Assembly: GCA_050633205.1 (NCBI GenBank)
Contig: JBOEGA010000026.1
Location: forward strand, 1,412-65,411
Direction of reading: 5' to 3'
DNA from: Methyloligellaceae bacterium
Lineage (GTDB): Bacteria > Pseudomonadota > Alphaproteobacteria > Rhizobiales > CBDHHC01
DNA length: 64,000 nucleotides
The translations under genes and the position numbers were made by a program. Position 1 is the first letter of the stretch; the number at the start of each line of letters is the position of its first letter. Of the stretch, positions 9,603 through 44,129 are shown piece by piece. Under the pieces are notes generated by a model, which was not told the DNA's origin, made no database searches, and worked only from the letters and a program-made list of their open reading frames with translations.

Positions 9603-9665
9603 TTAGAAACACTCCTAATATGAATAACAATTCTACCAAATCAGATCCCCATCTATCGGTAGTGT

Positions 9666-23776: not shown

Positions 23777-24758
23777 TTTCAGTTACACTTTTATTGTGAA
23801 TAGTATCTGCATAAAAACAGCGTATATTCCGGTTATTAACTTTGCGCATTGCAGGCGTTTCACTGACACAGAGGTTATCACCAAAGCTGCACCTCGGGGC
23901 AAATGCACATCCTGTTTCCGATACGTTAAGGGGAGACGGCATTGTGCCGGGAATCTGATATAGCATCTCGCCTCTCCTGTTGCGTTCCGGCAGGGAAGCA
24001 ATCAGTCCCCTGGTGTATGGATGACCCGGCTGGCGGCAAATTAAATCTGTATCCCCTTCCTCGACGGTTTTTCCGGCATACATAACAATCATGCGCTCGG
24101 TGACCTGACTAACGACGGCTATGTCATGAGAAATCAGTATCAATCCCATCCTGTGATTTTTGCAGACATCAAGCAGTAACCTCAATATTTCCGCCTGTAT
24201 GGTTACATCAAGGGCTGTTGTTGGCTCATCAGCAATGATCAGTGCCGGTTCAGTCAGGAGTGCTATGGCAATGACAACGCGCTGTAACATGCCTCCCGAT
24301 AATTCATGCGGGTAGGATTTAAAGCGTTCTTCTGGAGACGGAATGGAAACCTCTGAAAGTTTTTCAATGGAAAGCCTCATGGCCTCGTCATATGAAATTT
24401 CTCTATGTGCTCTTAGGGTTTCAACCATCTGCTGGCCGATCGTGAATACAGGGTTGAGGGTCATCATGGGATCCTGAAATACCATTGAAATCCGTCCACC
24501 TCTGATCGCGCGCATGGTATTGGCGTCTAATTGTACTAAATCCTGATTTTCAAAAATAATGCTGCCCCGGCTTATTCGGCCGGGTTTGCTGACGAGATTT
24601 AAAATAGAGAATGCAACCATGGATTTTCCGGCGCCGCTCTCTCCTACAATGCCGAGACGTTCTCCTGCTTTCAAATTAAACGTAATGCCTCTGAGAGCAA
24701 GTGTATTGCCTTGCCGGGCAGGGAACTCAACTTCCAGATTGTTAATCTGTAAAAGCAT
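23769..24758 (-). CDS. oligopeptide/dipeptide ABC transporter ATP-binding protein (DppD/OppD-like)
   Basis: It has Walker A GESGAGKS, signature LSGGMLQRV and Walker B IIADEPTTALD. The C-terminal motif is CAFAPRC. Confidence 0.85.
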   Translation of the reverse strand: MLLQINNLEVEFPARQGNTLALRGITFNLKAGERLGIVGESGAGKSMVAFSILNLVSKPGRISRGSIIFENQDLVQLDANTMRAIRGGRISMVFQDPMMTLNPVFTIGQQMVETLRAHREISYDEAMRLSIEKLSEVSIPSPEERFKSYPHELSGGMLQRVVIAIALLTEPALIIADEPTTALDVTIQAEILRLLLDVCKNHRMGLILISHDIAVVSQVTERMIVMYAGKTVEEGDTDLICRQPGHPYTRGLIASLPERNRRGEMLYQIPGTMPSPLNVSETGCAFAPRCSFGDNLCVSETPAMRKVNNRNIRCFYADTIHNKSVTENE

Positions 24759-24769
24759 ATTAAAGCGAC

Positions 24770-25687
24770 CTACTTCCTGTACAGCCTGGGATTAAGAACG
24801 TCACGCAGCCAGTCTCCGATAAGGTTCATAGACAATATCAGAATTATAAGAACGATACTGGGAATTATGGTAATCCACCATGAGCCGGAAAAGATATATT
24901 CAAAGCCGGCACGGATAAGCGAACCAAGTGAAGGTTGTGATACGGGCATACCCAGTCCCAGAAAGCTGAGAGATGCTTCAGCAATAATTGCCTCTGCCAC
25001 CTGTACAGTTGATATGACCAGTACGGGAGAAAGCGTATTTGGGAGAATATGACGGATCATAATCCGTATGTTGGACAGTCCTATTACGCGGGCAGCATCG
25101 ACATATTCCTTATTGCGCTCAGCAAGTACTGATGCGCGGACTGTTCTGGCGTATTGAGGCCATTCTGCAAAACCTATCACAAGGATAATCATAATCATGG
25201 CGTAGCTCTGATAAAGCTCTGCACCAAAGGCAGTCTGAAATACTGCCAGAGCGATAATCGCAATCATAAGGGTAGACAGGGAGAGCTGAATATCAGCTAG
25301 TCTCATAAGTGCAGAATCTGTTCGTCCTCCCACATAGCCTGCAATCAACCCAATGGAGACACCGATAAATGCCTGGATGAGTACGGCAAAGATTCCGATC
25401 GTCAGAGACAGGCCGGTGCCATACAGAATAGTGGACAGCATATCCCGTCCCTGATGATCTGTGCCAAGGATGAAGCGGCTGTCTCCCTCTTTCTGCCAGA
25501 CTGGCGGAATTTCGGCATCCAGAATATCAAGCTGTGCCAGATCATAAGGATTTTGTGGTGCTATAAACGGGGCAAGGACAGAAGCAAGAATGAAGAATAA
25601 CAGAATAACAGAACTGATTATAGCAACGCGGTCACGTGAAAAACGATAAACAATATTCGATTGCAGAATCTGATTTATAAATGTCAT
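24770..25687 (-). CDS. ABC transporter permease (DppC/OppC-like)
   Basis: It is a multi-pass membrane protein with the binding-protein-dependent permease EAA-type loop (YVDAARVIGLSNIRIMIRHILPN). Confidence 0.8.
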   Translation of the reverse strand: MTFINQILQSNIVYRFSRDRVAIISSVILLFFILASVLAPFIAPQNPYDLAQLDILDAEIPPVWQKEGDSRFILGTDHQGRDMLSTILYGTGLSLTIGIFAVLIQAFIGVSIGLIAGYVGGRTDSALMRLADIQLSLSTLMIAIIALAVFQTAFGAELYQSYAMIMIILVIGFAEWPQYARTVRASVLAERNKEYVDAARVIGLSNIRIMIRHILPNTLSPVLVISTVQVAEAIIAEASLSFLGLGMPVSQPSLGSLIRAGFEYIFSGSWWITIIPSIVLIILILSMNLIGDWLRDVLNPRLYRK

Positions 25688-26694
25688 TTCCTTTCTCCCG
25701 CAATACTGATTGTGGGATTAATAAATGAATAAATCAAATCTACAATTGTATTGGTGGTTACAAAAATAAAACCGACTACGATAATATAGGCAATAATTAA
25801 TGGCGTATCTGCACGGTTCACGGCTTCCAGAAACAGAAATCCCATACCGGGCCATTGAAAAACAGTTTCCGTCAGGATCGTATAGGCGATGAGGGTTCCT
25901 ATTTTTACTCCTCCGAGGCTGACAGTGGGGATTAAGGTATTCTTTAGGGCATGAACATACCAGATGCGTTGAGGCTTTAATCCTTTAGCCCATGCAAACC
26001 TGATATATTCCGAGTTCAGAACTTCAAGCATTTCTCCTCTGATAAGCCTGATAAATAGCGGTAACATAATCGAGGATAATGCGACTGATGGCATTATAAT
26101 ATGCGCCCAGCCATCAAAAGTAAGAAAGCCCGTATCCCATCCCCATGGAAGAGTTACAGTCTCCCCTCTGCCAAAGGAAGGCATTATCCCAAGTTGTACT
26201 GAAAATATGTAAATGAGGAAAATTGCAGTTAGAAAAACAGGAATAGAAATACCAACAATAGAAAGGCCCATAATGGTTCTGGATATCCATGAATCCGGTG
26301 ATATTGCGCATCTGACGCCGACAGGTACAGACACAAAAATAATAATAACACTTGCCAGGAGAACCAGTTCAAAGGTTGCTGCGAATTTGGCGAAAATCAC
26401 TTCCAGAGTGGGCTTTTTGAAGAAGTATGAGGTTCCAAGATCGCCGGTAACTGCTTTCTGCATAAAACGCCAGTATTGAACGAATATATGATCATTCAAC
26501 CCCATACGTTCACGAACAATATTGCGTTCAGCTTCCGAGACGGACTGTCCTACCAGTTCTCTTAACGGATCACCGAGGTTATTTTGAATGGCAAAGCCGA
26601 TCATACTTATTACGATCATAACAAGCATTGCCTGCCCGATACGTGACACCAGAAATAACAGCAGTTCAGAGGTTTTCATTCGGAGCCAGCCCAA
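25684..26694 (-). CDS. ABC transporter permease (DppB/OppB-like)
   Basis: It is a multi-pass membrane protein with the motif YIRFAWAKGLKPQRIWYVHALKN. It overlaps the downstream permease by 4 nt. The true start may be Met-6 (26679). Confidence 0.8.
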   Translation of the reverse strand: MGWLRMKTSELLLFLVSRIGQAMLVMIVISMIGFAIQNNLGDPLRELVGQSVSEAERNIVRERMGLNDHIFVQYWRFMQKAVTGDLGTSYFFKKPTLEVIFAKFAATFELVLLASVIIIFVSVPVGVRCAISPDSWISRTIMGLSIVGISIPVFLTAIFLIYIFSVQLGIMPSFGRGETVTLPWGWDTGFLTFDGWAHIIMPSVALSSIMLPLFIRLIRGEMLEVLNSEYIRFAWAKGLKPQRIWYVHALKNTLIPTVSLGGVKIGTLIAYTILTETVFQWPGMGFLFLEAVNRADTPLIIAYIIVVGFIFVTTNTIVDLIYSFINPTISIAGERK

Positions 26695-26709
26695 CCCGGT
26701 TATAAATGA

Positions 26710-26737
26710 ATAAGGCCGTGTACCGCCACGGCCTTAT
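26710..26737 (-). promoter_or_regulatory. intercistronic 11-bp perfect hairpin between the SBP gene and the permease genes
   Basis: The sequence is ataaggccgtg-taccgc-cacggccttat. There is no strong U-tract on the transcribed strand. This is the classic position for a partial terminator or mRNA stabiliser after an ABC binding-protein gene. Confidence 0.5.
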
Positions 26738-26751
26738 ATCAAAATCTGTAA

Positions 26752-28305
26752 TTATTCGAGAACAAGATCTCCGAGATAAGGAAAATTCAGAACGTTGACA
26801 ACCTTGTCAATCCCGACACCTTTACGGGCAGCCCAGGCAAGATCCTGCCAGTGCAAAGGAACAAAGGCAGCGTCGTCATATAGTATTTTCTCGATATTCT
26901 GAAGTACCCTGGCTCGTTCTTTGGAGTCTGTCATGCCAAGTGTTTTTTCTGTTAAAGTGTCAACTTCAGGGTTAGAGTAATTACCACTGTTATACTGCCC
27001 CTTGCCGGTCTTCTTATTGACTGTCATTGCCAGAAATTCGTAGAAATTTGCCGAGTCTTCAGTATCGGCATGCCAGCCGATCATCATGATATCCGCAGCT
27101 CTTTCGTCAAATTTCGGCCAGTATTGCGCTTTCGGCATGGTTGTCAGTTCAACCTTTATATTGATCCTTGCTAACATGGCTGCTACCGCTTCTGCGATTT
27201 TGGCATCATTAACATAACGGTTGTTAGGAGCCATCATGGTTACGGTAAAGCCTTTTTCAAACCCGGCTTCCTTCATAAGCTTTTTGGCTTTGGCAAGATC
27301 ATAACGCGGCTTCAGGCTTTCATTATAACCAAGATATCCTTTCGGGCTCATCTGGGCTGCCGTTGTGCCAAAGTTTTTCATGATCTTTTTGACAATACCA
27401 TCATTATTGATGGCATGAACAATTGCCTGTCTGACTTTTTGATTTTTAAAAGCTTCCACACGTTCCTGGTTGAGCTGGAAAGTAATGACACGTGTGCCGC
27501 TCATTGTAACCAGGTTTGTATTCTTATTTTTTTTGATGCGCTCAAGGTCGGTTGGTGGAACCGGTGCAATGAAATCAATATCGCCAGAGAGGAGGGCAGC
27601 TATTCGGGTTGGAGCTTCTTTAATGGGAGTAAAGACTATTTCAGTCACATTACCCGGAGAATTTTTATCCCAATAATCTTTAAAACGTTCAAAAACGGTT
27701 TTGACACCCTGTTCCCTGCTTTTAACGATAAAAGGACCTGTGCAGGATATATTTTTAGAAGCAAATGAGCCTTTGTGTTTTACGATAGCAGCTTTTTCAT
27801 TTCCGTTTTCATCTTTACCTTCATAATATTGGGAATCCAGCGGAAAGATGTAGGTTGCATTGTGCAGAACCAGCGGGAACGGGCCATCAGTAATTATATC
27901 TATGGTGTAATCGTCAACAATTTTGATTTCCTTGAATTTATCAAATATTGCCTTGAAATCAGGACTTGTCTTTATTCGCTTAAATGTCCACTGAACATCT
28001 GAAGCTTTCATTTCTCTGCCAGAGTGAAATTTTACACCTTTTCGCAGAAAGAAACGCATGGTTGCATCATTGATACGCTCCCATTTTTCAGCAAGCCTGG
28101 GTTCAAAAGCGAGCTTTTGTGTCCATCTTACAAGGGGATCGCATGTTGTGTGGGATAATTGTAAAACGCCTCCTGATAATTGCTCTTGAATATCAAGAGT
28201 CACCGGATCGGAATCATATGCCATTTTCAAAGTCTTGGAATATAAAGATCCGGGGAATATCAGGAGAGAGAGAACTATTAGTAAAAATCTTTTGGTCAGG
28301 TTCAC
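26752..28305 (-). CDS. ABC transporter substrate-binding protein, family 5 (DppA/OppA-like)
   Basis: It is 517 aa with a signal peptide, and its sequence is typical of family-5 SBPs (LKMAYDSDPVTLD..., GPF...FERFKDYW). It is the first gene of the transporter operon. Confidence 0.85.
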   Translation of the reverse strand: MNLTKRFLLIVLSLLIFPGSLYSKTLKMAYDSDPVTLDIQEQLSGGVLQLSHTTCDPLVRWTQKLAFEPRLAEKWERINDATMRFFLRKGVKFHSGREMKASDVQWTFKRIKTSPDFKAIFDKFKEIKIVDDYTIDIITDGPFPLVLHNATYIFPLDSQYYEGKDENGNEKAAIVKHKGSFASKNISCTGPFIVKSREQGVKTVFERFKDYWDKNSPGNVTEIVFTPIKEAPTRIAALLSGDIDFIAPVPPTDLERIKKNKNTNLVTMSGTRVITFQLNQERVEAFKNQKVRQAIVHAINNDGIVKKIMKNFGTTAAQMSPKGYLGYNESLKPRYDLAKAKKLMKEAGFEKGFTVTMMAPNNRYVNDAKIAEAVAAMLARINIKVELTTMPKAQYWPKFDERAADIMMIGWHADTEDSANFYEFLAMTVNKKTGKGQYNSGNYSNPEVDTLTEKTLGMTDSKERARVLQNIEKILYDDAAFVPLHWQDLAWAARKGVGIDKVVNVLNFPYLGDLVLE

Positions 28306-28589: not shown

Positions 28590-29183
28590 TCAGGATACCA
28601 ATTTAGCAAATGCCTGATCAAAGCCTTTTAGGGGTACGCTAATTTTGATATCTTTCTGGTTTACATTTTTAAAGGTGACATTGAGGACTTTGCCGCTTCT
28701 CATTTTTTTCAGTAAAGCACCTTTTACCGGCATACCAACATAGCAACCTCTCTGGTCGCAGGTCTGTATCTGCTGGGTATCTTCTTTTTCATTATCAATT
28801 TTAAATTTCAAGCCTGATGGAAGGTGTAATCCGTGCGGAAGCTGCACCATCATAACACCGTTTTTCTTATCTGGTGTTGCGCGCACAGTAATGCTCAATA
28901 AAAGCTGGCGTGTTTTTCGTAAAAATAGTTGTTGGGATGCTGCACAGTTAATTTTTACTCCATTGCTTGAGCAGTTGACCTGCCAGGGGAGAGGAGATGG
29001 TGCAGCTTTAGCAGTTTTATTGCCTGCTTTTTTATCGCTCGCCTGTGCAATTTTTGTCTTGTTGTCTTTACCCCATGATGAGAAGAGAGATGATGAGGGT
29101 TCTTTGGCAAATGCAGATGTCCCAATCGCGAGACAAAGCCCGGATATAGATGCAAATGTATATATCGTCTTTAGTGCATTCAT
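28590..29183 (-). CDS. IalB (invasion-associated locus B) family periplasmic protein, copy 2, divergent from the autotransporter
   Basis: It has a signal peptide (LCLAIGTSAFA). IalB-like landmarks are PWQVNCSS...INC, IQTCDQRGCYVGM and NVTFKNVNQKDIKISVPLKGFDQAFAKL. Confidence 0.7.
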   Translation of the reverse strand: MNALKTIYTFASISGLCLAIGTSAFAKEPSSSLFSSWGKDNKTKIAQASDKKAGNKTAKAAPSPLPWQVNCSSNGVKINCAASQQLFLRKTRQLLLSITVRATPDKKNGVMMVQLPHGLHLPSGLKFKIDNEKEDTQQIQTCDQRGCYVGMPVKGALLKKMRSGKVLNVTFKNVNQKDIKISVPLKGFDQAFAKLVS

Positions 29184-29647
29184 TGTTGTGACCTGTTTAT
29201 TCTTCTTTGTTGAGTAATTTTCGAGTTCGTATCTGCCATCAAAAGAGAGTTCTTGTCATAAGTCAAAATAAATTTTTATAGATGCAGATAATTTCCATAA
29301 TAATTGTACATGCATTAATGTTATGCATTTTGACGCCTTGTAAATAATCAAATTGTTGTATATTTGCTCAATCAAACGAAAGTCTATGTATCTGTATCGC
29401 AACATTTTTTTTTGTATTTCATAAAAGCAATTTTTGTAGTGGTTTTCCCTATAGATCAATGTGTGAATTTTGATCAGTATACTTTTCAGTAAGAAATATG
29501 TTTTGAATGCAATTATACCGCATTTTACATAATGCTGCAGCATGATTGTGAAATTGTGTCTGTTGTCACAGTATGCCCAAATAGTTCAGCGCCATGAAGC
29601 GCTGCTGCACATTTGCAAGATGTGTATGTAAAAAGACAGAGGTTTGT

Positions 29648-32600
29648 ATGTTTTCTCGTTTTGCGTCTTGTCGCCCAGATGTTTCTTTCGTGCGTATAGT
29701 CTCTTCAACTTCCAAAAAACTGATTTTTAGAAGCTGTTTGTTTGCAATTGCTCTTACCGGAGCAGTTGCGGGGCAAAATGTTGCCGTTGTGAAAGCTGAT
29801 GGTATTGATCTGTCAACGAAGGGTGCTGATGGTAAAAAGGGTAAAAAGAATTTTTATTTTTTCTGGTCAACCACAACCGACGGTGAAAAAGGCAAAGATG
29901 GCGGAAAGATAGACAAGACAATAAAGCAGGATGTTACTAGCAGTTCATCTCATGGAATAAATGCGGTCAGTACAGGGGGTAAAGGCGGAGATAGCGCCAG
30001 TTCCTGGGGCGTATTTTATAGCGGTACCGGCAATGCAGGTCGCGGTGGTAACGGCGGAGAAATAGAACTTAATTATGATGGCACTTTGAGTGTAAGCGGT
30101 GATGGTAACCACGGCATCAATGCAGTGAGCCAGGGAGGCAATGGTGGCCGGGGGGGTAAGTCTGAAGCAGCTTTTGCTTCGGACTCGGGAAGTTCCGGAA
30201 ATGGTGGTCAGGGCGGCAAAGTTACCGTAACCAATAATGGCCATATATCAACCACAGGTAATGAATCATACGGTATTAATGCTGTCAGCCGGGGTGGAGT
30301 AGGTAACGGTGGCGGATATGCCGGGAGTGGATTTGTTTCAGTTGGAGGCCGTGGAGGTGACGGTGCTTCGGGAGGTGATGTTACTGTAACGAACAACGGG
30401 GTTATCGAAACACATGGTTCAGGCTCTCATGGAATTAATGCCTTAAGCGAAGGCGGTAATGGCGGATCTGGTGAGGGTGGACTTGGCGTCTTTATCGGTG
30501 GTGTCGGGGGTTCTGGTGGAAAGAGTGGAGATTCCGGAAAGGTTGAGGTAACCAACAAGGGCAGCATTACAACCAGAGGAAATGAAGCGCATGGCATTAA
30601 TGCAGTAAACGGTTCAAGTCAAGGTGGGAATAGCGGCTGGGGCGGAGGCCTGTTTTTTGGTGCTACACAGAATGCTGGAAATGGTGGTAGCAGTGGTGAA
30701 ATAATTATTACCAATGGTAAAGATGGAGAAATAAGAACACACGGTAATTCTTCACATGGCATTAATGCAGAATCATATTCAGGAAATGGTGGACGTGGCG
30801 GAAATGTCTTTGGAGTCTTGTTTGGCCTTGGAGGTGCTGGTGGTTCTGGCGGTGGTTCTTCCGGGACAATTGATATAACCAATGAGGGAAAAATAGCGAC
30901 TTCAGGTGATGGTTCCCATGGAATTAATGCTATCAGTCACGGTGGTAGTGGCGGTGATAGTGGTTTGGGGTTAAGTGCATTTTTTGGTGCTGCACTTGAT
31001 GCTGGAAGTGGTTCTGGTTCCGGAAATATAACGATTACTAACAGTGGTGAAATTCATACATCCGGCAGTGGATCTCATGGTATAAACGCCGAAACGTCTG
31101 GCGGTAATGGCGGTCATGGCCAGGGTTCATTCGGTCTGATATTTGCTCTTGCCGGTCTGGGCGGAGATGGAGCTCTTGCTGGTCAGATAGATATTACGAA
31201 TAATGGGCTTATTACGACTTCAGGAAACAACTCGCATGGAATTAATGCTATCAGCAATGGTGGCAATGGCGGCAATAGTGGCTGGTCGGGAAGTCTTTTA
31301 ATCGGAGCTGCACAAGATGCCGGTGGCGGTGCTGCTGGTGGGAAAATCACTATCGTTAATAGCAAAGATGGTGAAATTCATACAAAGGGTGATGGCTCTC
31401 ACGGCATTAATGCTGAAAGTACCGGTGGTCATGGTGGACATGCACAGGGAACAATCGGAGTGCTGTTTTCGCTGGCAGGTCTGGGTGGTAATGGCGACCT
31501 TGGTGGTCAGATAGATATTACAAATCAAGGAACAATTACTACTTCAGGCGATGGTTCGCATGGAATAAATGCAGTTTCGACAGGTGGATATGGCGGCAAC
31601 AGTGGCTGGTCCGGTGGTTTGATAGCAGCTACACAACATGCCGGGAATGGTGGTGCCGGAGGACTAATAAATATTACCAATACTGGCATGATCCAGACAA
31701 CTGGCGAAAAATCTCACGGTATTAATGCCGTTGTAACTGGAGCACGTGGTGGTAACGGGGGTGATGTAATCGGGGCTCTTATCGGAGTTGCCGGTAAAGG
31801 TGGCAGAAGTGAAGGTGCCGGAGATATTGTCATCAATAATGAAGGAAGCATTGTAACATCAGGAACCGGGTCTCACGCGATAAACGCTGTTAGCGCTGGT
31901 GGATATGGCGGTACAGGGGGCTGGGCTGGCTGGGGTATGCTGGCTGCTGTCGCAGGCGGCGGAGGTGATGGCGGAAATGGTGGCAAGGTTACCGTTAATG
32001 ACAAGAATACCAGGACTGACCGGGTGTTTTTTACAATGGGTAAAGAGGCTCATGCGGTTAATGCCGAGAGTAAAGGAGAAACAGGTGGTCAGGGTGGCCT
32101 GACTGTCGGATTCCATCTTTTTGCTGGTGGCAGTGGTAGCGGCAGTGGTGGTAATGGCGGTAATGGTGATACCGTTGATATCAATTTCCTGAATTCACGA
32201 ACAACTGTACTGACAGCCGGTGAAAATGCACACGGTCTTGTTGCCAAAAGCCAGGGTGGTTCTGGTGGTAATGGGGGTATGTCTGTTGATGTTACCGGAG
32301 GCATGGGAGTAGCGCTGGGTCTTAGTTTTGCTAATTCCGGGGGAGATGGTGGTCATGGTGGTGACGTCTCTGTCAGAAACAGAGCAACTATAGTTACCGG
32401 CTATACTGAAGACGGTGTAACTGATGGCGTCGTTAATAATGGCAAAAATGCATATGGTATCAATGCAGTCAGTAATGGCGGTGATGGCGGCCGAGGTGGT
32501 GATGGTTATGTTTTCAGTTTTGCTATTCCGTATAAAGGAAGTCCTGCTGGCAGTGCAGCTATCGGCCTTAGTGGCCGTGGAGGAAATGGCGGGAATAGTG

Positions 32601-35600
32601 GCAGTGTTTATGTTCAAAACTCCGGTAAGGTCATAACATATGGCGAAGGTGCGCATGCAATTAATGCTGTAAGCCAAGGAGGAAATGGAGGCAATGGCGG
32701 TAATATTATTTCGGGTGCCGGCGCCTTTGGTACATCCCATACCGCAGCTGTGGCATTTGGAAAAGCTGGCGATGGCGGTGCTGGTGGTGCAGGTGGTATT
32801 GTTGATACCAGTAATTATGGCAGTATTTACACAAAAGGTGATGGTGCTTACGGGATTAATGCAGAAAGTACAGGTGGTGATGGCGGTAATGGCGGCATGG
32901 CAATATCTGCCGGTATTGCGTATTCCTTAGGTTCATCTGTTCCCGGAGTTAACAAGTCAAAGTCTGTCGCTGGCTCAGTAGCATGGAGTGGAAATGGTGG
33001 TAAAGGTGGTAATGCCAGTTCCGTGACCGTATCAAATGCAGGCAAGATAATAACTGACGGCAAAAGCTCGTACGGTATTAATGCAGTTGCTAAAGGTGGT
33101 AAAGGTGGAGATGGGAATGTAGCCGTTTCAGTTAGCCTGGCACCGGATGCAAATATCAGCTCTGCTGTTGAAGGAAAAGGTGGCAATGGTGGTACTGGTG
33201 ATCAAGTTACTGTTTCCAACAGAGGTGTAATCGCGACATTTGGTGATAAGTCACATGGCATCAATGCAGAGAGTGTTGGTGGCGATGGTGGTGTTACAGA
33301 CGTGACTGTTGCTGCTGGTGTGTCAGGTGGTTTCTCGCTAAATTTTGATATTCCTGCATATGGTGGTACGGGTGGAAATGGAAGTACCGTTACTGTAACC
33401 AATAAAGGTGTCATCTATACAAACGGGGATAACGCTTATGGAATTAATGCTGCAAGTCGTGGTGGCAACGGTGGTAATGGTGGCACTAATGCTGCAGCCA
33501 ACCTCTCACTGGGTGGTGATACCGGTGTAAATGTTGTTTCAGGTTCTTTTGGTGGACAAGGTGGTGCTGGTGGTTATGTGAATGGCCAGAATATCGGTCA
33601 GATATTGACTGAAGGGGAGGGATCCCATGGCATGTACGGAACCAGTGCAGGTGGTCAGGGCGGTCTAGGCGGTGACGTTATTACAGTTGGTGCCCTGAAT
33701 AAACATGGCCTGAATGTTTCAGTTGGTGGAGCTGGTGGCAATGGCGGGGGTGCAGGTTCTGTAAACCTTACCAACAGGGATATCATTCAGACAACCGGGC
33801 ATAATTCCATCGGCATGTATGGCCGTAGTAATGGCGGTAATGGAAATACAGGAGGTATGTCAATTGCTGTTGGTGTCGGGCAGATTTTACCTGAAAAATT
33901 CGGAATTAAGAATTCGCCAGCCGGAGCCGGATTGCAAGGCGGTAAGACTAATGTCGTCTCAAGGATATCAAACAGGCTAAAAAATACTCCAATTCAGGGG
34001 GCGGTATCTGTTGGTCGTAAAGGCGGAGATGGCGGTAACGGCGAAAATGTTACTCTGAAAAATAAACCTGGTTACAAGGTCAGAACCTGCAAGTTTATAT
34101 TCTTTTGCAGCGAAGCCGTTCAGGATGAGGAACCTGAAGAAGTAAACGGAGGAAATTTCTTTACACGACTGGTAAGTAATACAAAGGTCACGAAGCTTGA
34201 GGCTACAATATACACAGCTGGTAATTCTTCTCATGGTATGAAGGGAGAAAGCAGCGGTGGTGATGGTGGCGAGGGTGGAAAAGCCCTTGCTGTTGCCGGG
34301 GAAGGCTATTCAAAAGATCGAAATGCTGTCGATATCACCGATACGACTAAAGTGGACAGATTTAAAGATCCGAAGTCCGGTAATATTGCAGTGTCCTTTG
34401 CCGGAGATGGAGGTCGGGGCGGCAATGCCGGTGTTATAGACCTTACTAATTCAGGGGATATTGTAACTTCCGGTCATGGCTCAAGCGGTATGTATTTTCA
34501 TGGTGCTGGAGGGCATGGTGGAGATGGTGGTAATTCAGGGCTTGGTAAAAAGTTCTGGGGCGATGGTCTGTATGGTCTTAACCTGAATTTCGATGGAGAG
34601 AGTATTCTTGATCTTGGAGAGGATGCTGAACTGGGATTTGGCGGCGCCTATGTTTACGGAACGGGCCAGGGATCTATCGGTATCGCGATAAGTAAAGGCG
34701 GCAATGGTGGCCATGGTGGTAAGGGTGGCCAACTTATTGGTCTGAATGAAGGTAATGTCTGGACTAATGGTGTTGGAAGTGCCGGTATCAAGGCAGATGC
34801 CTCAGGTGGCAATGGCGGAGACGGTGGTATTGCGAATGCCGGAGCGATTGCATTTGCTGCTGAAACCACAACAAGTATTGCGATTGCTGTTGGCGGTGAT
34901 GGTGGTAATGGCGGTAAAGGTGGAATAATTAATTTTACCAATACTGGCAATATTATTACCGAAGGTACCAGTTCTGCCGGGATAGATGCTATCAGTGCAG
35001 GTGGTCGCGGTGGTGACGGGGGGACAGCCCGGGCATTCTACCTACAAAGGAATAAATCGAAACCTAAAGATACTCCGGGTACAGGTTCTTCTACATCATC
35101 AACACGCCCGGATTCAGGCAGCAGTTTATCAGATGCCATGAATTCAGCCGGAGATGCTGGCGGTAAACCAAATAAAAGTCTTATCTCGGCAGCATGGGAT
35201 CACATAAGAAAAAATCAGAAACCGAGTAAAGGTGATGATGCTCTCGCTAATGCTAATAACAGTGAGTATGGCTTTGAGATGACATTTGGCATGGGTGGTT
35301 CTGGTGGACATGGCGGTGATGGCGGTACTGTTGATATTACAAACCAGGGACAGATTTATACTGAAGGTGCTTTTTCTGCTGGTGTAAATGCTGCCAGCAT
35401 TGGAGGCGATGGTGGTAATGGCGGGGATTCTGCCAGAGGTATTGGTATTCTCTGGGCACTGGCAGAAGTTGAAAGTCTTTCACCACACTGGGCTACTCTT
35501 ACCAATCCTAAAATTGATATCGGTGGAAATGGTGGTAATGGCGGTAACGGATCTACTGTTACGATCAGCAATAGTGGAAAGATATATACAGGCGGAAACT

Positions 35601-38600
35601 ATTCGTCTGGAATTTTTGCTGCCAGCAGAGGCGGTAAAGGTGGCAAAGGTGGAACTGGAGACTCCGGATATATTGGTGACCTTTCCATTGGAGGAGAAGG
35701 TGGTCAGGCAGGGAGAGCCGGTGAAGTTAAAGTTACAAATAAACGAGAAAATACAAGAGATGATTTGCCACTTATTGTAACGGCTGGTGAGATGTCAAAT
35801 GCTATTACAGCGATCAGTGCAGGTGGTCGTGGCGGTGATGGCGGTGATGCCAGGTTCGGTGGAGAATGGTCTGTTATTCAGGATATGATTAACAAGTTCC
35901 GGACAAATAATGCCTGGAAATCCAAAGACGATTTCAAGAAGGCTTTAAAATCCTTCAGAGACAAAACCTTCTTACCAAGAATGGGGCTTGCTCTGGCCTG
36001 GAATGGTCGAGATGGAGCTGACGGAGCTCTTGTACACATTGACAGTGAAGGCATTTTGAGTACTGCAGGTGAATTATCGCACGGTATTCTGGCTATGAGT
36101 AATGGTGGTCATGGTGGTGCAGGAGGCAGTACTTATTCGAGTAATATCGGTAAACTTCCAAGGCCTGGTACAGGTGGTAGTGGCGGTGCTGGTGGCATGG
36201 TTGATATTATACACAATGGCGATATTTATGCCATTGGTAATGGATCACACGGCATTGTTGCTCAATCCACTGGTGGTAAGCGTGGAGAAAATGGTCAGGT
36301 AGAATATGCCTGGCTTGAAATGCCGTGGGACCTGACGCCTGATGCTAACTCTGATGATATAGCAGACTGGGATAACCCCGGTGTTGAGATTGGCGATATT
36401 CCAATAATACCAGGGCTGGATATATTCAAAAAGGCAGAAGATGGTAACGGTGGTACTATATCGATAAATGGTGAAGGCCTGATATATGTGGGTAATGCTG
36501 GTAATACCGATGCCTCAATTGGTATTCTTGCTCAAAGTATCAGTGGTGCAGAACCATTGGTGAAGGAAGTTACTGTTGAGATTAACGAAGAAGATCCTAA
36601 TGGTGATGGAGATACCAGCGATGCTGTTGACCTGGATGGGGATGGCAAGACAGATGGCAAGGTTCAGGTTGTCAATCTGGTTCCAACTGGTGAGCGTATA
36701 ACTTCCAAGCCGGGAAGCGGCAAAGGCGGTGATATCATTATCGATCGCAGTGGGGCTATCATGAGTCCTTATGACAATGGTATTGCAGTATTGCTTGAAA
36801 GTGCAGGCCAGCAGGGAGGTGGGAACATTGAATTCACCTTCAATAAAGGGAGCAATGAAATAAAGCTTTCAGATGCCGATGATGCACAGGACTTTAATGG
36901 TTATATCATTGGTGGAAGTGGCAGTGATGGTGCAGCTATTCTGATCAGAGGGGGGGCTGATAACAAGATTACCCTTGGTGAAGGTACCACTGTTTATTCA
37001 GGAAACTACAGAACGATAATTTCTGAAGATTCTTACGGAGATTTCAGTGTTATCGGTAATGACACAATCAATAACCATGGAAAGGTTATTGGTAATGTTG
37101 ACCTTGGCAGAGGCAATAACACATTTAATAACAAGGCGGGAGCTGAGTTCGTGACATATGAGCATGTCAGGCTTGGTAGTCCGGGCAACTATCTTGTTAA
37201 TGAAAGTGGCGGTTTGATAAATCCTTACGGCCTTGGTGTTGGTGAAACAAAGGTTGATGGTGGATATGTCGGAGAAGATGGCAGTAAAATGCGCTTTGAC
37301 GTACACTTTGGTTCAACCCGAACGCCTTATGTTTCTACTGGTGGTACCAATACAGGTCATACCTCAGGCTCAAATCCGAATTATGATAGCGATCATAGTG
37401 GTTCGCAAAATCCGGATGCAGATAAGTTTGCTGATATGACTGCTCGTGAAATTATTGAGTATTACAAGAATAACAAACCTTCAGCAGGTGAGAATGTACC
37501 GGATATTGCTAACCCGGACAGACCTGGTCAGGGATTTGGTTCTAATGAATTTGATAATGACACAAATGATACTGACGATAACGAAACCAGAGCGAACAAC
37601 CCTGAGGGTAGTGATCGTATGGTCTTTACAGGTAATGTTCACCTGAATGGTGCTATCTATATTGATCTGTTCAACCTTAGCAGGGGTGAGGAAACGCTGG
37701 TAATCTCAGAAGGGGACCTGACTGTTGGTAATGATCTGAAACTGGAGAAACTTTTCAGTAGTGCAGCTCTATCCAATATGGATTATGAGGTGATCAAGGA
37801 TGCTGATGGAAAAAGTCGTTTTATTGTAAAAATTGAAACTGATATTCAGAGGCTTGCTGCGAAGGGGAACCAGTCCAGTCTGAGTGTTCATCTTGATGAA
37901 ATTGTGAATGAGAGTGAGGATGGTGCCGGAGATGGCCTTTCTAATGCTCTGGCTTCTCTCGTCAAGGTTCCGGAGGGCCAGGAACATCTGATTGCTGCCT
38001 CGTTGGATACCGTTCATTCTGAGGCCTACCTTTCCCAGTTTACAAGTGCATTATTTTCTGACCTTGGTTTTGTGGACAGAATGGCAAATTGTGGAACCCA
38101 TGGTATAAGTTCCAGAATAGTTAATGGTAATTGCATCTGGGGGCAGGCTACTGTCAGGCAATTTGAGCAAGGAAGCAGTCTTACCAGTTTTGGAATGGAA
38201 GAAGATAGTCATATCTTTGCCGGAGGTTATCAGAGGGCAATATCCGAGAATGTGATGCTTGGAGTTTCTCTTCAATATGACCAGGGAACTTTGAAGGTTG
38301 AAGACAGGCTGACAAGTAAAATCAAAGCCGGAAAAATAGGTGGCTTTGGCAGATATAAAGAAGGGCCTTTTGAATTTACACTTGGGGCAAACTACGGTTA
38401 CAGCTGGTATGATAATAGCAGACGGATCAGTCTTCCAACCCAAATACTGAATGACGAAGGAGAAACTGAATATGGCCTTGGGGTTTTGCTTGCAAAAGGA
38501 AAAAGCTCTATTCAGTCTGGTGGTGTTCAGTTGCAGCTTGCCTATAAGCATGAGACCCGGAAGATGTATATTAAGCCCTTCATTGATTTAAGAGCAAACT

Positions 38601-38998
38601 ATCTGGAGTTTGATAAACTTAAAGAAAAGGGAATCGATGGGCTGGGGCTCAGTTTGAAAGATTCCGATAACTGGCAGCTTTCCATTAAACCAGGTATTGA
38701 GTTCGGCGGAGAGTTTGAGGTTAAAGAAGGTATTTCAATTCGTCCTCACCTGATGCTTGGTGCGATATTCTTTAACGATAGTTCGTGGAGTACACAAACT
38801 GCATTTGCAGGTTCTCCAGGGGATGTTTCAGCATTTAATATTGATGGTGAATTTGATGATGTGCTTGCTACAGTAGAGGCAGGTATTGATATGCGTTTTG
38901 AAAAAGAAGGCTTAAATCTCAAGCTTCAATATGGTGGTAAATTCTCAGATAATGTTGAAGAGCATTCTGGAACTGTAAGAATGTCTGTTGATTTCTAG
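29648..38998 (+). CDS. giant glycine-rich classical autotransporter (~3116 aa from Met-19; the ORF is open from 29594)
   Basis: The ATG at 29648 has AGAGG 6 nt upstream. The leader MFSRF...LFAIALTGAVAGQNVAVVKA looks like an extended signal peptide. The passenger has more than 30 repeats of G.V.VTN.G.I.T.G..sHGINA.S.GG.GG. The C-terminal ~300 aa has alternating beta-strand patterning and ends ...GTVRMSVDF, with the terminal aromatic typical of OM beta-barrels. Confidence 0.85.
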   Translation: MFSRFASCRPDVSFVRIVSSTSKKLIFRSCLFAIALTGAVAGQNVAVVKADGIDLSTKGADGKKGKKNFYFFWSTTTDGEKGKDGGKIDKTIKQDVTSSSSHGINAVSTGGKGGDSASSWGVFYSGTGNAGRGGNGGEIELNYDGTLSVSGDGNHGINAVSQGGNGGRGGKSEAAFASDSGSSGNGGQGGKVTVTNNGHISTTGNESYGINAVSRGGVGNGGGYAGSGFVSVGGRGGDGASGGDVTVTNNGVIETHGSGSHGINALSEGGNGGSGEGGLGVFIGGVGGSGGKSGDSGKVEVTNKGSITTRGNEAHGINAVNGSSQGGNSGWGGGLFFGATQNAGNGGSSGEIIITNGKDGEIRTHGNSSHGINAESYSGNGGRGGNVFGVLFGLGGAGGSGGGSSGTIDITNEGKIATSGDGSHGINAISHGGSGGDSGLGLSAFFGAALDAGSGSGSGNITITNSGEIHTSGSGSHGINAETSGGNGGHGQGSFGLIFALAGLGGDGALAGQIDITNNGLITTSGNNSHGINAISNGGNGGNSGWSGSLLIGAAQDAGGGAAGGKITIVNSKDGEIHTKGDGSHGINAESTGGHGGHAQGTIGVLFSLAGLGGNGDLGGQIDITNQGTITTSGDGSHGINAVSTGGYGGNSGWSGGLIAATQHAGNGGAGGLINITNTGMIQTTGEKSHGINAVVTGARGGNGGDVIGALIGVAGKGGRSEGAGDIVINNEGSIVTSGTGSHAINAVSAGGYGGTGGWAGWGMLAAVAGGGGDGGNGGKVTVNDKNTRTDRVFFTMGKEAHAVNAESKGETGGQGGLTVGFHLFAGGSGSGSGGNGGNGDTVDINFLNSRTTVLTAGENAHGLVAKSQGGSGGNGGMSVDVTGGMGVALGLSFANSGGDGGHGGDVSVRNRATIVTGYTEDGVTDGVVNNGKNAYGINAVSNGGDGGRGGDGYVFSFAIPYKGSPAGSAAIGLSGRGGNGGNSGSVYVQNSGKVITYGEGAHAINAVSQGGNGGNGGNIISGAGAFGTSHTAAVAFGKAGDGGAGGAGGIVDTSNYGSIYTKGDGAYGINAESTGGDGGNGGMAISAGIAYSLGSSVPGVNKSKSVAGSVAWSGNGGKGGNASSVTVSNAGKIITDGKSSYGINAVAKGGKGGDGNVAVSVSLAPDANISSAVEGKGGNGGTGDQVTVSNRGVIATFGDKSHGINAESVGGDGGVTDVTVAAGVSGGFSLNFDIPAYGGTGGNGSTVTVTNKGVIYTNGDNAYGINAASRGGNGGNGGTNAAANLSLGGDTGVNVVSGSFGGQGGAGGYVNGQNIGQILTEGEGSHGMYGTSAGGQGGLGGDVITVGALNKHGLNVSVGGAGGNGGGAGSVNLTNRDIIQTTGHNSIGMYGRSNGGNGNTGGMSIAVGVGQILPEKFGIKNSPAGAGLQGGKTNVVSRISNRLKNTPIQGAVSVGRKGGDGGNGENVTLKNKPGYKVRTCKFIFFCSEAVQDEEPEEVNGGNFFTRLVSNTKVTKLEATIYTAGNSSHGMKGESSGGDGGEGGKALAVAGEGYSKDRNAVDITDTTKVDRFKDPKSGNIAVSFAGDGGRGGNAGVIDLTNSGDIVTSGHGSSGMYFHGAGGHGGDGGNSGLGKKFWGDGLYGLNLNFDGESILDLGEDAELGFGGAYVYGTGQGSIGIAISKGGNGGHGGKGGQLIGLNEGNVWTNGVGSAGIKADASGGNGGDGGIANAGAIAFAAETTTSIAIAVGGDGGNGGKGGIINFTNTGNIITEGTSSAGIDAISAGGRGGDGGTARAFYLQRNKSKPKDTPGTGSSTSSTRPDSGSSLSDAMNSAGDAGGKPNKSLISAAWDHIRKNQKPSKGDDALANANNSEYGFEMTFGMGGSGGHGGDGGTVDITNQGQIYTEGAFSAGVNAASIGGDGGNGGDSARGIGILWALAEVESLSPHWATLTNPKIDIGGNGGNGGNGSTVTISNSGKIYTGGNYSSGIFAASRGGKGGKGGTGDSGYIGDLSIGGEGGQAGRAGEVKVTNKRENTRDDLPLIVTAGEMSNAITAISAGGRGGDGGDARFGGEWSVIQDMINKFRTNNAWKSKDDFKKALKSFRDKTFLPRMGLALAWNGRDGADGALVHIDSEGILSTAGELSHGILAMSNGGHGGAGGSTYSSNIGKLPRPGTGGSGGAGGMVDIIHNGDIYAIGNGSHGIVAQSTGGKRGENGQVEYAWLEMPWDLTPDANSDDIADWDNPGVEIGDIPIIPGLDIFKKAEDGNGGTISINGEGLIYVGNAGNTDASIGILAQSISGAEPLVKEVTVEINEEDPNGDGDTSDAVDLDGDGKTDGKVQVVNLVPTGERITSKPGSGKGGDIIIDRSGAIMSPYDNGIAVLLESAGQQGGGNIEFTFNKGSNEIKLSDADDAQDFNGYIIGGSGSDGAAILIRGGADNKITLGEGTTVYSGNYRTIISEDSYGDFSVIGNDTINNHGKVIGNVDLGRGNNTFNNKAGAEFVTYEHVRLGSPGNYLVNESGGLINPYGLGVGETKVDGGYVGEDGSKMRFDVHFGSTRTPYVSTGGTNTGHTSGSNPNYDSDHSGSQNPDADKFADMTAREIIEYYKNNKPSAGENVPDIANPDRPGQGFGSNEFDNDTNDTDDNETRANNPEGSDRMVFTGNVHLNGAIYIDLFNLSRGEETLVISEGDLTVGNDLKLEKLFSSAALSNMDYEVIKDADGKSRFIVKIETDIQRLAAKGNQSSLSVHLDEIVNESEDGAGDGLSNALASLVKVPEGQEHLIAASLDTVHSEAYLSQFTSALFSDLGFVDRMANCGTHGISSRIVNGNCIWGQATVRQFEQGSSLTSFGMEEDSHIFAGGYQRAISENVMLGVSLQYDQGTLKVEDRLTSKIKAGKIGGFGRYKEGPFEFTLGANYGYSWYDNSRRISLPTQILNDEGETEYGLGVLLAKGKSSIQSGGVQLQLAYKHETRKMYIKPFIDLRANYLEFDKLKEKGIDGLGLSLKDSDNWQLSIKPGIEFGGEFEVKEGISIRPHLMLGAIFFNDSSWSTQTAFAGSPGDVSAFNIDGEFDDVLATVEAGIDMRFEKEGLNLKLQYGGKFSDNVEEHSGTVRMSVDF
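29948..36290 (+). repeat. intragenic tandem repeat region of the autotransporter passenger (~55-aa unit with a ~110-aa super-repeat in part)
   Basis: I counted about 32 'HGINA-like ... GG.GG' cores by eye, from SSHGINAVSTGG (29948) to GSHGIVAQSTGG (~36250). Between ~30600 and ~31700, units alternate between a 'GGNSGW.G...AAQ.AG' type and a 'GGHG(Q/A)G..G(L/V)(I/L)F(A/S)LAGLGG' type. Some DNA stretches recur exactly, for example catggaattaatgctatcag at ~30917 and ~31236. Confidence 0.8.
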
Positions 38999-41662: not shown

Positions 41663-42706
41663 ATGATGAAAGTAACTAGTCGACTACTCGCAGGTCTTCT
41701 GGCCTTCATTATCATGAATGCTACGGCATTCGCAAAAGATCTGGTCGTTGGAGTATCATGGTCAAATTTTCAGGAAGAGAGATGGAAAACCGATGAGGCT
41801 GCTATCAAGTCAGCATTGGCTAAAGCAGGGGCTAAGTATATTTCTGCAGACGCTCAATCGTCGGCTGCAAAACAGTTATCTGATGTTGAGAGCCTGATTG
41901 CACGAGGCGCTAATGCGCTTATTATTCTGGCTCAGGATGCAGATGCCATTGGTCCTGCTATACAAAAAGCTGTTGCAGAGGGAATTCCTGTTGTTGGTTA
42001 CGACCGGCTCATTGAGAATCCTAAAGTATTCTATATTACTTTTGATAACAAAGAGGTAGGGCGCATTCAGGCGCGTGAGGTGCAAAAGGTAGCAGAAAAG
42101 GGGAATTACGTCTTTATCAAGGGTTCCTCAGCAGATCCAAATGCAGACTTTTTATTTGCAGGCCAGGTTGAGGTCCTCAAAAAGGCTATGGAAGAAGGTA
42201 AAATCAAGAATGTTGGTGAAGCCTACACCGATGGATGGAAGCCTGAAAATGCTCAACGTAATATGGAGCAGATACTTACCAAAAACGATAACAAGGTTGA
42301 TGCGGTTGTTGCGTCCAATGACGGTACTGCAGGTGGAGTTATTGCAGCTCTGAGTGCTCAGGGGCTAGCTGGTACAGTTCCGGTTTCAGGGCAGGATGGC
42401 GATCATGCAGCACTGAACAGGGTCGCTCTTGGCACGCAGACTGTGTCTGTGTGGAAAGATGCCCGCGCTTTGGGAGCCAAGGCAGCAGAAATTGCAGTGT
42501 TGCTTGCAAATGGGAAAGCCATGAAAGATGTTCCCGGGCTGGTTAAATTTTCAGGAGGTCCCAAAGGTGTCACGATGAACTCATTGTTTCTCGCACCTGT
42601 GGCAATTACAAAAGATAACCTCAATGTTGTTATAGAAGCTGGCTGGATCACCAAAGATAAGGTCTGTCAAGGTGTGAAAAGCGGAGCTCCTGCTGTTTGC
42701 AAGTAG
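41663..42706 (+). CDS. xylF: D-xylose ABC transporter substrate-binding protein
   Basis: It has a signal peptide, then [28 protein letters not shown]...[14 protein letters not shown], typical of XylF. xylHG, xylB and xylA follow. Confidence 0.85.
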
Positions 42707-42749
42707 GTGTAATGTTTTCTGATAATAATATCAAAAAATAGAAATACAG

Positions 42750-42782
42750 TCCCATACCGTGAAAATTGTGATCGGTATGGGA
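42750..42782 (+). promoter_or_regulatory. intercistronic 10-bp hairpin after xylF
   Basis: The sequence is tcccataccg-tgaaaattgtgat-cggtatggga. It has the same architecture as the hairpin after the Dpp-type SBP gene. Confidence 0.45.
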
Positions 42783-42809
42783 TATCAGAAACCTTAAAGT
42801 AATAATACA

Positions 42810-44129
42810 ATGACTGATGAAACGATGAGTTCTACTGGCAAGAATGTTCGGGTGACCGAGAGTTTTTCCGAATTCGTGGCACGATTTTTTCGAGCAACGG
42901 AAATTGATACGCGAATGCTTGGTATGATTGGCGCCTTACTGCTGATCTGGGTCGGGTTTGACATATTTTCAGGTGGATTATTTCTGACCCCCCGTAATCT
43001 ATGGAATCTTTCTGTACAGACAGCGTCCATTGGTGTGATGGCTACCGGAATGGTATTGATCATCATTACGAGAAATATTGATTTGTCAGTAGGGTCAATT
43101 CTTGGTTTTACCGGTATGATCATGGCGACCATGCAGGCAGAATGGCTTCCCACATTACTCGGCTTTGATAATCCGTTTACCTGGATTATAGCGCTTTTAG
43201 GGGGAATGGCAGTCGGAGCCATGATTGGTGGAGTTCAGGGGGCCATTATTGCCCATATGGGAGTTCCATCATTTATTGTGACGCTGGGAGGCTTACTGAT
43301 CTGGCGTGGTTGCGCGTGGTGGGTCACCAGTGGCAGGACTGTCGCTCCGATGGATTCAACCTTTAAACTGATGGGCGGGGGCGTTGAAGGTTCAATAGGT
43401 GCTGTTGCTAGCTGGGGTGTTGCAGTTGTGGCCTGTATTGGAATTCTGTTTGTAGTCATTAATGGCCGCAATCAGAGAAAGCGTTTTCAATTTCCTCTGC
43501 GTCCTCTATGGGCAGAGTCTTCTATTGTACTGGCAAGCTGTTCACTCGTCGTTGGTGCAGTCTGGGTGTTTAACAGTTATCCGTGGCCCAGAGCAATTGC
43601 ACAACGTTATGCCGCAGAAAACAATATTCCAATTCCTGCGGAGGGATTATTTATCTCGCATGGAATAGCCATTCCTGTACTGATCGCAGTTGTTACAGGT
43701 GTTGTTATGACATTTATCGCTACGCGAACACGTTTTGGCCGGTATGTTTTCGCAATTGGTGGCAATCCGGAAGCCGCGGAGCTGGCGGGGATAAAAACCA
43801 GAAGTCTGAAGATCAAGGTCTTTGCTCTGATGGGTATGCTGTGTGCTGTATCTGCTGCAATTTCGTCAGCCAGGCTTAATGCCGCAACAAATGCTTTAGG
43901 AACTCTGGATGAGCTTTATGTTATTGCAGCTGCAGTTATAGGCGGAGCTTCCCTGGCGGGAGGGGCTGGAACGATAGTTGGTGCCATGATTGGTGCTGTT
44001 GTTATGCAGTCACTGCAGTCAGGTATGGTACTGCTGGGGATAGATACACCTTTTCAGAATATCGTGGTTGGTCTGGTTCTGGTCATCGCTGTATGGCTTG
44101 ATACGGTTTATAAAGACAGAGCGAAGTAA
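42810..44129 (+). CDS. xylH: xylose/sugar ABC transporter permease
   Basis: It is a 439-aa polytopic membrane protein of the branched sugar-permease type ([15 protein letters not shown]..., [15 protein letters not shown]). It lies between xylF and the ATPase gene. Confidence 0.8.

Follow-up and report, generated by a model that had tools for sequence, protein, structure and literature searches.

We analysed a 64,000 nt stretch of contig JBOEGA010000026.1 (termed the window) from the metagenome-assembled genome (MAG) of a Methyloligellaceae bacterium. It carries a gene whose product has the architecture of a giant, glycine-rich autotransporter (Table 1). The gene lies on the + strand within a single open reading frame (ORF) of 3134 aa (29594..38998; ORF list and translation). 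In an earlier reading of the same DNA (termed the original prediction) its start was placed at 29648, and this placement is upheld. Specifically, an AGAGG Shine-Dalgarno sequence stands 5 nt before this codon (M19 of the ORF), whereas nothing comparable is present upstream of 29594. Furthermore, the resulting 3116 aa product is a 100% match to a deposited protein (‘MAG: hypothetical protein ACRBBN_04865 [Methyloligellaceae bacterium]’, P0001). Because of this ribosome binding site and the match in length to the deposited protein, 29648 is a better start than 29594.

The product begins, after M19, with KK and an 18-residue hydrophobic stretch, LIFRSCLFAIALTGAVAG, and inspection by eye suggests possible cleavage after AVA or VKA. 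No match to the extended signal peptide region (ESPR) was obtained in the whole-protein Pfam scan. At the other end the protein reads ...VRMSVDF, which is typical of a barrel terminus. Glycine accounts for 22% of residues in the protein overall and for 26% in its repeat array. Across positions 30001-38000 the GC content is 0.45-0.50 and the GC skew +0.25 to +0.32, whereas the flanks have values near 0.40-0.45 and 0.1, respectively. This rise is caused by GGN glycine codons and is not a signal of replication or of horizontal transfer.

Table 1. Features of the giant autotransporter gene and of its neighbourhood, in window coordinates (HMM, hidden Markov model; pLDDT, predicted local distance difference test; TPS, two-partner secretion)
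Feature	Position	Strand	Basis and remarks
Giant autotransporter coding sequence	29648..38998	+	3116 aa plus stop; in-frame upstream ATG at 29594 is a less likely start
Candidate long signal peptide, about 41-50 aa	29648..29797	+	Read from translation
Repeat array, about 34 units	29888..36547 (aa 99-2318)	+	Unit HMMs, regular-expression anchors, DNA repeat families D2 and D3
Regular block, units 1-13, HGINA subtype	29888..31966	+	Spacing 52-55 aa; 56-71 bits each against unit HMM
Two-unit super-repeat, units 5-12	30521..31804	+	Lag identities; 246 nt DNA pair; six units modelled, pLDDT 95.4
Non-repeat insert with close Cys pair (C-KFIFF-C, then SEAVQDEEPEE)	34073..34201	+	Translation, three-way alignment
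Ser/Thr/Pro/Lys-rich patch, probably disordered	35039..35281 (aa 1816-1896)	+	Translation
Non-repeat C-terminal passenger segment, I.NxGxVIGNVDLGxGNNxFNN region	36584..37318	+	Alignment A4 consensus; predicted β-rich
Low-complexity insert, predicted disordered (aa 2575-2670)	37316..37603	+	pLDDT 25-50; largely missing from homologue P0003 (deletions)
Pre-barrel β segment and helical linker	37616..38131	+	DSSP of AlphaFold2 model
Type Va autotransporter β-barrel translocator	38132..38995	+	PF03797, TIGR01414, Foldseek
IalB-family gene, divergent	28590..29183	-	197 aa, signal peptide, four conserved Cys (alignment A3); PF06776 E=1.8e-28
AT-rich divergent intergenic region, 464 nt, presumed to hold both promoters	29184..29647		Sequence
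Type Vb two-partner secretion operon	1923-13182	-	TpsB, orphan TPS-domain protein, IalB, TpsA/CdiA-like
TpsB/ShlB	11422-13182	-	Type Vb operon
Orphan TPS-domain protein, 364 aa	10307-11398	-	Type Vb operon
Second IalB paralogue	9669-10232	-	27% identical to the 28590-29183 IalB; inside type Vb operon
TpsA/CdiA-like exoprotein, 2560 aa	1923-9602	-	TPS, hemagglutinin repeat, DUF637, PT-HINT pretoxin module, then variable C-terminus

The bulk of the product consists of tandem units with the core motif G.(V/I).(V/I)TN.G.I.T.G..SHGINA.S.GG.GG, each followed by a spacer of glycine and hydrophobic residues. A regular expression for the S-H-G-I-N-A core yields 32 anchors. A profile built from units 1-13 recognizes 33 units at an independent E-value (i-E) <1e-4, plus a few marginal ones. 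A second profile, built solely from distant homologues (1,200 units from 117 proteins), recognizes 34 units at i-E<1e-3 between aa 96 and 2318. The counts of 33-34 units by HMM in a protein of 3116 aa bear out the expectation of a glycine-rich array of more than 30 units in an autotransporter of ~3100 aa. Beyond the regularly spaced units 1-13, inserts widen the spacing to 59-183 aa.

The original prediction also held that the units decay progressively towards the C-terminus. This impression arises only when the N-terminal HGINA subtype is taken as the reference. The family-wide profile has the consensus ..DVTVTNTGDITTTGDGSHGIFAQSVGGGGGNGG.., and scores against it range from 12 to 46 bits along the array without a trend. 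The C-terminal SHGILA, SHGIVA and SIGILAQS units stand near this family consensus (..GI.AQS.GG.GG). The C-terminal units are not decayed, and they fit the family consensus as well as the N-terminal units do.

Within the regular block, units 5-12 alternate between two spacer types, GGNSGW.G.L..GA.Q.AG and GG(H/R)G.G..G..F.L.G.GG, as had been noticed before. Units two apart are 58-73% identical (units 5-11), whereas adjacent units are 45-50% identical (among units 1-13). The difference is wider when spacers alone are compared (50-76% at lag 2 versus 22-31% at lag 1). At the DNA level, the segments 31045-31290 and 31369-31614 form a 246 nt pair that is 73% identical and spaced by 324 nt, which corresponds to two units. 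Because lag-2 identity exceeds lag-1 identity, and because the spaced DNA pair and the alternating spacers agree with it, the amplification of a dimeric module, as originally proposed, is real.

Such an architecture could serve as a contingency locus, wherein recombination or slippage between units often alters their number and thereby produces length or antigenic variation. The tandem arrangement and the clear past amplification of the two-unit module favour this explanation, and so does a homologue at 46% identity (P0003) that has about five extra units. The exact DNA repeats that the original prediction had expected to drive recombination are not found: no exact repeat in the gene exceeds 20 nt, units are 60-75% identical to one another in DNA, and Tandem Repeats Finder (TRF) reports no long-period DNA tandem repeat, only 9-12 nt GGN micro-repeats. 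Comparison with an orthologue (P0002; 81% aa and 77% nt identity) likewise gives no support for length variation. The synonymous divergence (dS) between the two genes is about 1.2, with synonymous sites near saturation. The two proteins come from independent assemblies and are collinear, they differ by two indels only (2 aa and 1 aa) over 3,116 aa, and no unit has been gained or lost. The ratio of non-synonymous to synonymous divergence (dN/dS) amounts to 0.096 for the whole gene and to 0.085 for units 1-13, and values for the repeats are 0.085-0.10 at dS 1.1-1.6. The retained unit count, the two tiny indels and the low dN/dS argue that the array is stable and constrained, and not a contingency locus. 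Copy number does change, but slowly, since P0003 has its additional units. For the lineage of the window gene frequent variation in unit number is already largely refuted, and we consider it very improbable.

The same comparison bears on whether the ORF is merely a low-complexity gene that is decaying or has no function, or else an assembly artefact. Its origin in a MAG, its extreme composition bias and a GC skew of 0.25-0.32 across the gene would each fit such an explanation. Against it stand the intact frame of 9.35 kb, the collinear orthologue on independent assemblies with its two small indels and dN/dS of 0.096, and thousands of full-length relatives in isolate genomes. These conservation data refute decay or artefact, to which we assign a negligible chance.

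The array is followed by a C-terminal β-barrel, which the original prediction had called canonical. When the C-terminal 500 aa were scanned alone, they matched PF03797 (E=1.3e-33) over profile positions 1-255 of 255, and TIGR01414 (6.6e-9). An AlphaFold2 model was made for aa 2300-3134 of the 3134 aa ORF, using a 14-row alignment (A4). The modelled barrel has a pLDDT of about 90, and a predicted helix (model residues 511-531) lies directly before the first barrel strand at 548. The top 18 matches of the model in a Foldseek search of the Protein Data Bank (PDB) are all type Va translocators. They include EstA (5.7e-19), AaaA, NalP (template modelling (TM) score 0.83), EspP, BrkA, Hbp and AIDA-I, with E-values from 1e-19 to 1e-9 and a best TM-score of up to 0.84 on the target. 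Passenger and translocator reside in one polypeptide encoded by a single ORF, and a six-unit block of the passenger is modelled as all-β. The barrel is recognized by PF03797, TIGR01414 and Foldseek alike. As judged from these profiles and the predicted model, membership in type Va is secure, because the top 18 structural matches of the barrel model are type Va translocators.

Pfam and NCBIfam scans of the whole protein returned nothing, and missed even this barrel. The miss is probably an effect of the HMMER composition (bias) filter, tripped by the glycine-rich sequence. Neither the C-terminal 500 aa nor aa 2235-2734 match the Pertactin or AC_1 autochaperone profiles of Pfam. Four 500 aa pieces, together about half of the protein, revealed no further domain in Pfam or NCBIfam.

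Non-repeat segments interrupt and follow the array, and the translation places both inserts of the original prediction where they had been located. The first holds KFIFFCSEAVQDEEPEE at aa 1499-1515, and its C-x5-C is among the passenger's few Cys pairs. In a three-way alignment this insert is kept in the 81% orthologue and missing from the 46% homologue. The second, the Ser/Thr/Pro/Lys patch, starts right after a conserved (R/A)(A/G)F(Y/T)LQR motif, and distant homologues (P0004, P0041) carry other, shorter sequence behind the same motif. In the C-terminal model, the passenger segment that follows the array has predicted strands at residues 82-273 with pLDDT of about 85-94.

The repeat unit does not correspond to a family that we could identify in the profile collections searched, in keeping with the original prediction, where it was not recognized as the standard 32 aa PATR repeat. 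Repeat blocks of the window protein match nothing in Pfam or NCBIfam, and 19 six-unit blocks of diverse relatives have no Pfam match even at E<=1. At E<=1, PATR (PF12951) matched neither the whole protein nor the 500 aa pieces nor any of 20 six-unit blocks, although in the whole-protein scan the composition filter hid even the barrel. Alignment of a six-unit profile to a PATR-type passenger with hhalign gave a probability of 0.05%. A sequence search of the PDB with a repeat block returned chance matches only (E=0.11).

To the prediction of a 4-6-unit block, which the original prediction had proposed as a check, AlphaFold2 responds with a repetitive β-solenoid of high confidence. Units 5-10 were modelled using a 20-row in-register alignment (A2) that includes non-overlapping six-unit blocks of 19 homologues. 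The model has a pLDDT of 95.4 and a predicted TM-score (pTM) of 0.90, and the same five-strand pattern recurs in each unit. The order is b1 (IDITN), b2 (KIATS), b3 (HGINAISH), a nine-residue Gly arc, b4, b5 and a ten-residue Gly arc. On the basis of this model, each unit most likely forms one unusually wide coil of ~53 residues, with like strands of successive units stacked. This arrangement is preferred because b1-b3 contain ~18 strand residues and b4-b5 ~7, such that the long strands can pair only with their counterparts in neighbouring units.

A more conventional geometry would be a three-sided right-handed β-helix of the pertactin/Ag43 type, in which every 53 aa unit supplies two coils of ~26 residues, a regular one (b1-b3) and a Gly-rich one (b4-b5). 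This would yield a rod of normal width and about double the length. The path b1-turn-b2-turn-b3 does cover about 24 residues, as many as a classical coil has. Furthermore, the insignificant structural matches that Foldseek lists for the six-unit model comprise right-handed β-helices (including pertactin 1dab, Ag43 7koh and Vag8 7akv) plus a Gly-rich polyproline-II antifreeze protein. In such a rod, however, the ~18 strand residues of each regular coil would need to pair with the ~7 of a Gly-rich coil. TM-scores against classical β-helices are 0.06-0.2, and PATR, Pertactin and AC_1 profile matches are lacking. We therefore regard two coils per unit as unlikely.

The array is not peculiar to the window gene. 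A search with the full protein recovered >2,200 significant relatives, mostly proteins of 2.7-5.3 thousand amino acids (kaa), named ‘autotransporter outer membrane beta-barrel domain-containing protein’ or ‘hypothetical’. Their genera include Caulobacter, Maricaulis, Ochrobactrum, Ruegeria, Paracoccus, Emcibacter, Sneathiella, Rhodomicrobium, Hyphomicrobium and Erythrobacter. The family is mostly alphaproteobacterial (Hyphomicrobiales, Rhodobacterales, Caulobacterales, Sphingomonadales and Sneathiellales), with outliers in Desulfuromusa and in a Chthoniobacterales MAG. A profile search of 1.84 billion representatives returned 3,154 clusters (grouped at 50% identity; proteins of 1.2-7.2 kaa) with E<=1e-3, of which 1,325 reach E<=1e-30. 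By these sequence searches, the array is the hallmark of a family of ~3,150 clusters.

Each of the 120 best homologues contains 15-40 units, and in many relatives ~53 aa units come first and 62-68 aa units later. An N-terminal head domain (..GDTVTNPVTG..), missing from the window protein, is present in many relatives. The C-terminal passenger segment and the barrel can be aligned across the family: the 14 members in A4 are 21-84% identical to the window protein, and invariant positions occur along the whole alignment. The literature searched contained no description of either the family or its motif. In precomputed Pfam annotation the Autotransporter domain is recorded for 0/120 of the best homologues, and 116/120 have no domain whatever. 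None of the giant genes in the locus tables has an entry in this annotation either. It seems that domain annotation systematically overlooks the family because of its Gly-rich composition. In Ochrobactrum quorumnocens, a conventional 1569 aa autotransporter with PATR, AC_1 and Autotransporter domains in precomputed Pfam (L005:1-3996, - strand) is divergent beside a Gly-rich giant (L005:5001-18017), which is followed by an IalB gene. The two types are distinct genes.

An IalB-family gene stands divergent to the giant gene in the window. IalB has so far been known only as an enigmatic ‘invasion’ factor of Bartonella and Brucella. The intergenic region between the two genes contains a 95 aa ORF (29256-29543) with no Pfam match. 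Promoter and terminator scans returned weak promoter-like matches only, with counts below shuffled expectation, and tRNA and Rfam scans found no elements. Among 11 loci of the family, IalB directly adjoins the giant gene in seven, in three arrangements. It is divergent upstream in three loci of the Methyloligellaceae clade whose other neighbours differ, convergent downstream in one metagenome contig, and co-directional, 19-52 nt downstream, in Ochrobactrum, Ruegeria and Sneathiella.

The second IalB paralogue of the window is part of the type Vb operon, whose large exoprotein is probably a contact-dependent toxin. At the locus of homologue P0004 a TPS/filamentous-hemagglutinin gene (L004:1-1977) lies ~3 kb upstream of the Gly-rich autotransporter, an arrangement that echoes the window. 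In Hyphomicrobiales, IalB genes have been reported beside trimeric autotransporters, a link viewed as possibly incidental, and in Bartonella IalB has been tied to host-cell adhesion and invasion (PMC7688925; bioRxiv 10.64898/2026.01.22.700529). The two window paralogues adjoin type Va and type Vb genes, and together with these published pairs they suggest that IalB is a general type V accessory protein. A bolder combination would be a new class of solenoid (wide, with ~53 residues and five strands per turn and alternating layer types) together with IalB as a dedicated exported accessory factor of type V secretion in general. We hold this combination only tentatively and would not expect it to prove right as a whole. 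Foldseek found no solved representative of the proposed wide-solenoid class in the PDB.

Other genes flank this core. Upstream (22790-28305, - strand) is an ATP-binding cassette (ABC) system of the Opp/Dpp type with an SBP_bac_5 binding protein. Downstream (41663-44129, + strand) are a GFO/IDH/MocA oxidoreductase, a ROK regulator and a sugar ABC system. These transport and metabolism genes are not conserved beside orthologues.

The explanation that we favour, with a probability of roughly 0.7, is that the product is a monomeric autotransporter of the classical type Va, with a stacked, wide-coil solenoid, a role as a surface fibre or adhesin, and IalB as a partner. By analogy with established type Va biology, a long signal peptide would direct the protein through Sec to the periplasm, where the C-terminal barrel and linker helix would insert into the outer membrane. 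The passenger of ~2,750 aa would then be threaded out and fold on the cell surface, and most of it would be a repetitive β-solenoid of about 34 Gly-rich units. The two-unit, two-layer module was amplified into units 5-12 before the split from the 81%-identical orthologue, and since then purifying selection has kept the array constant. The passenger may act as a rigid surface fibre in adhesion, aggregation or biofilm contact, and the neighbouring exported IalB-family protein is probably its functional partner. A fibre or adhesin role is most likely, because the architecture is that of a long, constrained, Gly-rich solenoid without a recognizable enzymatic or toxin domain.

This architecture can be compared with known systems. 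Pertactin, Ag43, AIDA-I/TibA, Hbp and EspP combine a signal peptide, β-solenoid passenger, linker helix and C-terminal barrel on one chain, an order of parts that is predicted for the window protein too, with a candidate signal peptide. Their coils comprise 19-25 aa, in contrast with a unit here of 53-65 aa with five strands, two Gly arcs and 26% Gly. The window repeat block also differs from pertactin/AIDA-I-type passengers in having no PATR, Pertactin or AC_1 match and no significant structural match. BmaC of Brucella suis (3,420 aa), likewise from a hyphomicrobial alphaproteobacterium, is another type Va surface protein of giant size; it is a fibronectin-binding, polar adhesin and monomeric autotransporter (PMC7697752). 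BmaC was not adopted as a relative; the literature describes it as being of the PATR plus pectin-lyase type, and it is set apart by description only. AoaA of Azorhizobium was a further candidate for comparison, and the literature searched yielded no more on it than its mention in a review. In the Brucella BatA/BtaE-IalB pair, IalB is also immediately beside an autotransporter adhesin gene (PMC7688925; bioRxiv 10.64898/2026.01.22.700529). There the partners are trimeric and of type Vc, whereas in the window IalB is paired with a monomeric type Va giant, and a second IalB lies in a type Vb operon.

RTX β-roll proteins also have Gly-rich tandem repeats and parallel β structure, and some GG.GGD.G arcs of the window protein are superficially RTX-like. 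RTX proteins, however, have a 9-residue period, conserved Ca-binding Asp residues and type I secretion, unlike the 53-65 aa period and autotransporter barrel found here. Asp is not conserved in the family unit consensus (QS.GGGGG.GG), and Pfam scans of the whole protein, its pieces and six-unit blocks found no RTX families. IcsA (VirG) of Shigella has about six Gly-rich repeats in a protein of ~1,100 aa. It is mentioned as having N-terminal Gly-rich repeats in an autotransporter passenger (PMC3566212), a likeness by description only.

Instead of an adhesin, the passenger might be a cleaved or surface-coating protein whose flat faces, lined with Gly, Thr and Asn, bind ice, minerals or polysaccharide or form a protective coat. 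The regular T-N ladders (..ITN,.I.T.) and Gly-rich arcs would suit such a function, and the Gly-rich polyproline-II antifreeze protein 7jjv is among the top Foldseek matches (probability 0.95, E=0.018). The family is also widespread in free-living marine and soil Alphaproteobacteria and is not limited to pathogens. However, the match to 7jjv is insignificant and composition-driven (TM 0.2), Asn and Thr ladders are generic to β-helices, and no cleavage motif was identified. The linkage to IalB and the neighbouring contact-dependent toxin system point instead to cell-contact functions. A coating or surface-binding protein is quite improbable on balance.

Several observations weigh against the favoured surface-fibre autotransporter with its wide coils and IalB partner. 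The signal peptide was called by eye only. Foldseek returned nothing significant in the PDB for the six-unit model (best E about 0.02, TM <= 0.2), which fits an unusual geometry but may also stem from register problems typical of repeats. Adhesion is read from architecture, and the literature searched yielded no experimental data on family members. IalB is not adjacent in 4/11 loci (Caulobacter, Paremcibacter, Desulfuromusa and a truncated Rhodomicrobium contig). Furthermore, when 80 loci centred on IalB, mostly from Bradyrhizobium, were inspected, 0/80 adjoined a Gly-rich giant. In most of them IalB lies ~200 nt downstream of, and co-directional with, a gene for an AcrB-family pump of the resistance-nodulation-division (RND) class (e.g. 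L043:6436-9696, L067:6400-9777). This neighbourhood is a second, unrelated conserved context of IalB. Four of the 80 (L010, L021, L055 and L066) adjoin other type Va autotransporters. The link is thus strong when viewed from the giant autotransporter (7/11) and weak when viewed from IalB (0/80).

The secretion mechanism itself is ordinary, and the value of this locus beyond a single gene lies elsewhere. It represents a family of several thousand giant outer-membrane proteins that is essentially unannotated and invisible to domain annotation. The unit profile defined here provides a handle for annotating this family and a target for structural work on a solenoid geometry that is probably unusual and new. 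In addition, the recurrent partnership with IalB offers a testable hypothesis for the long-unknown function of that protein.

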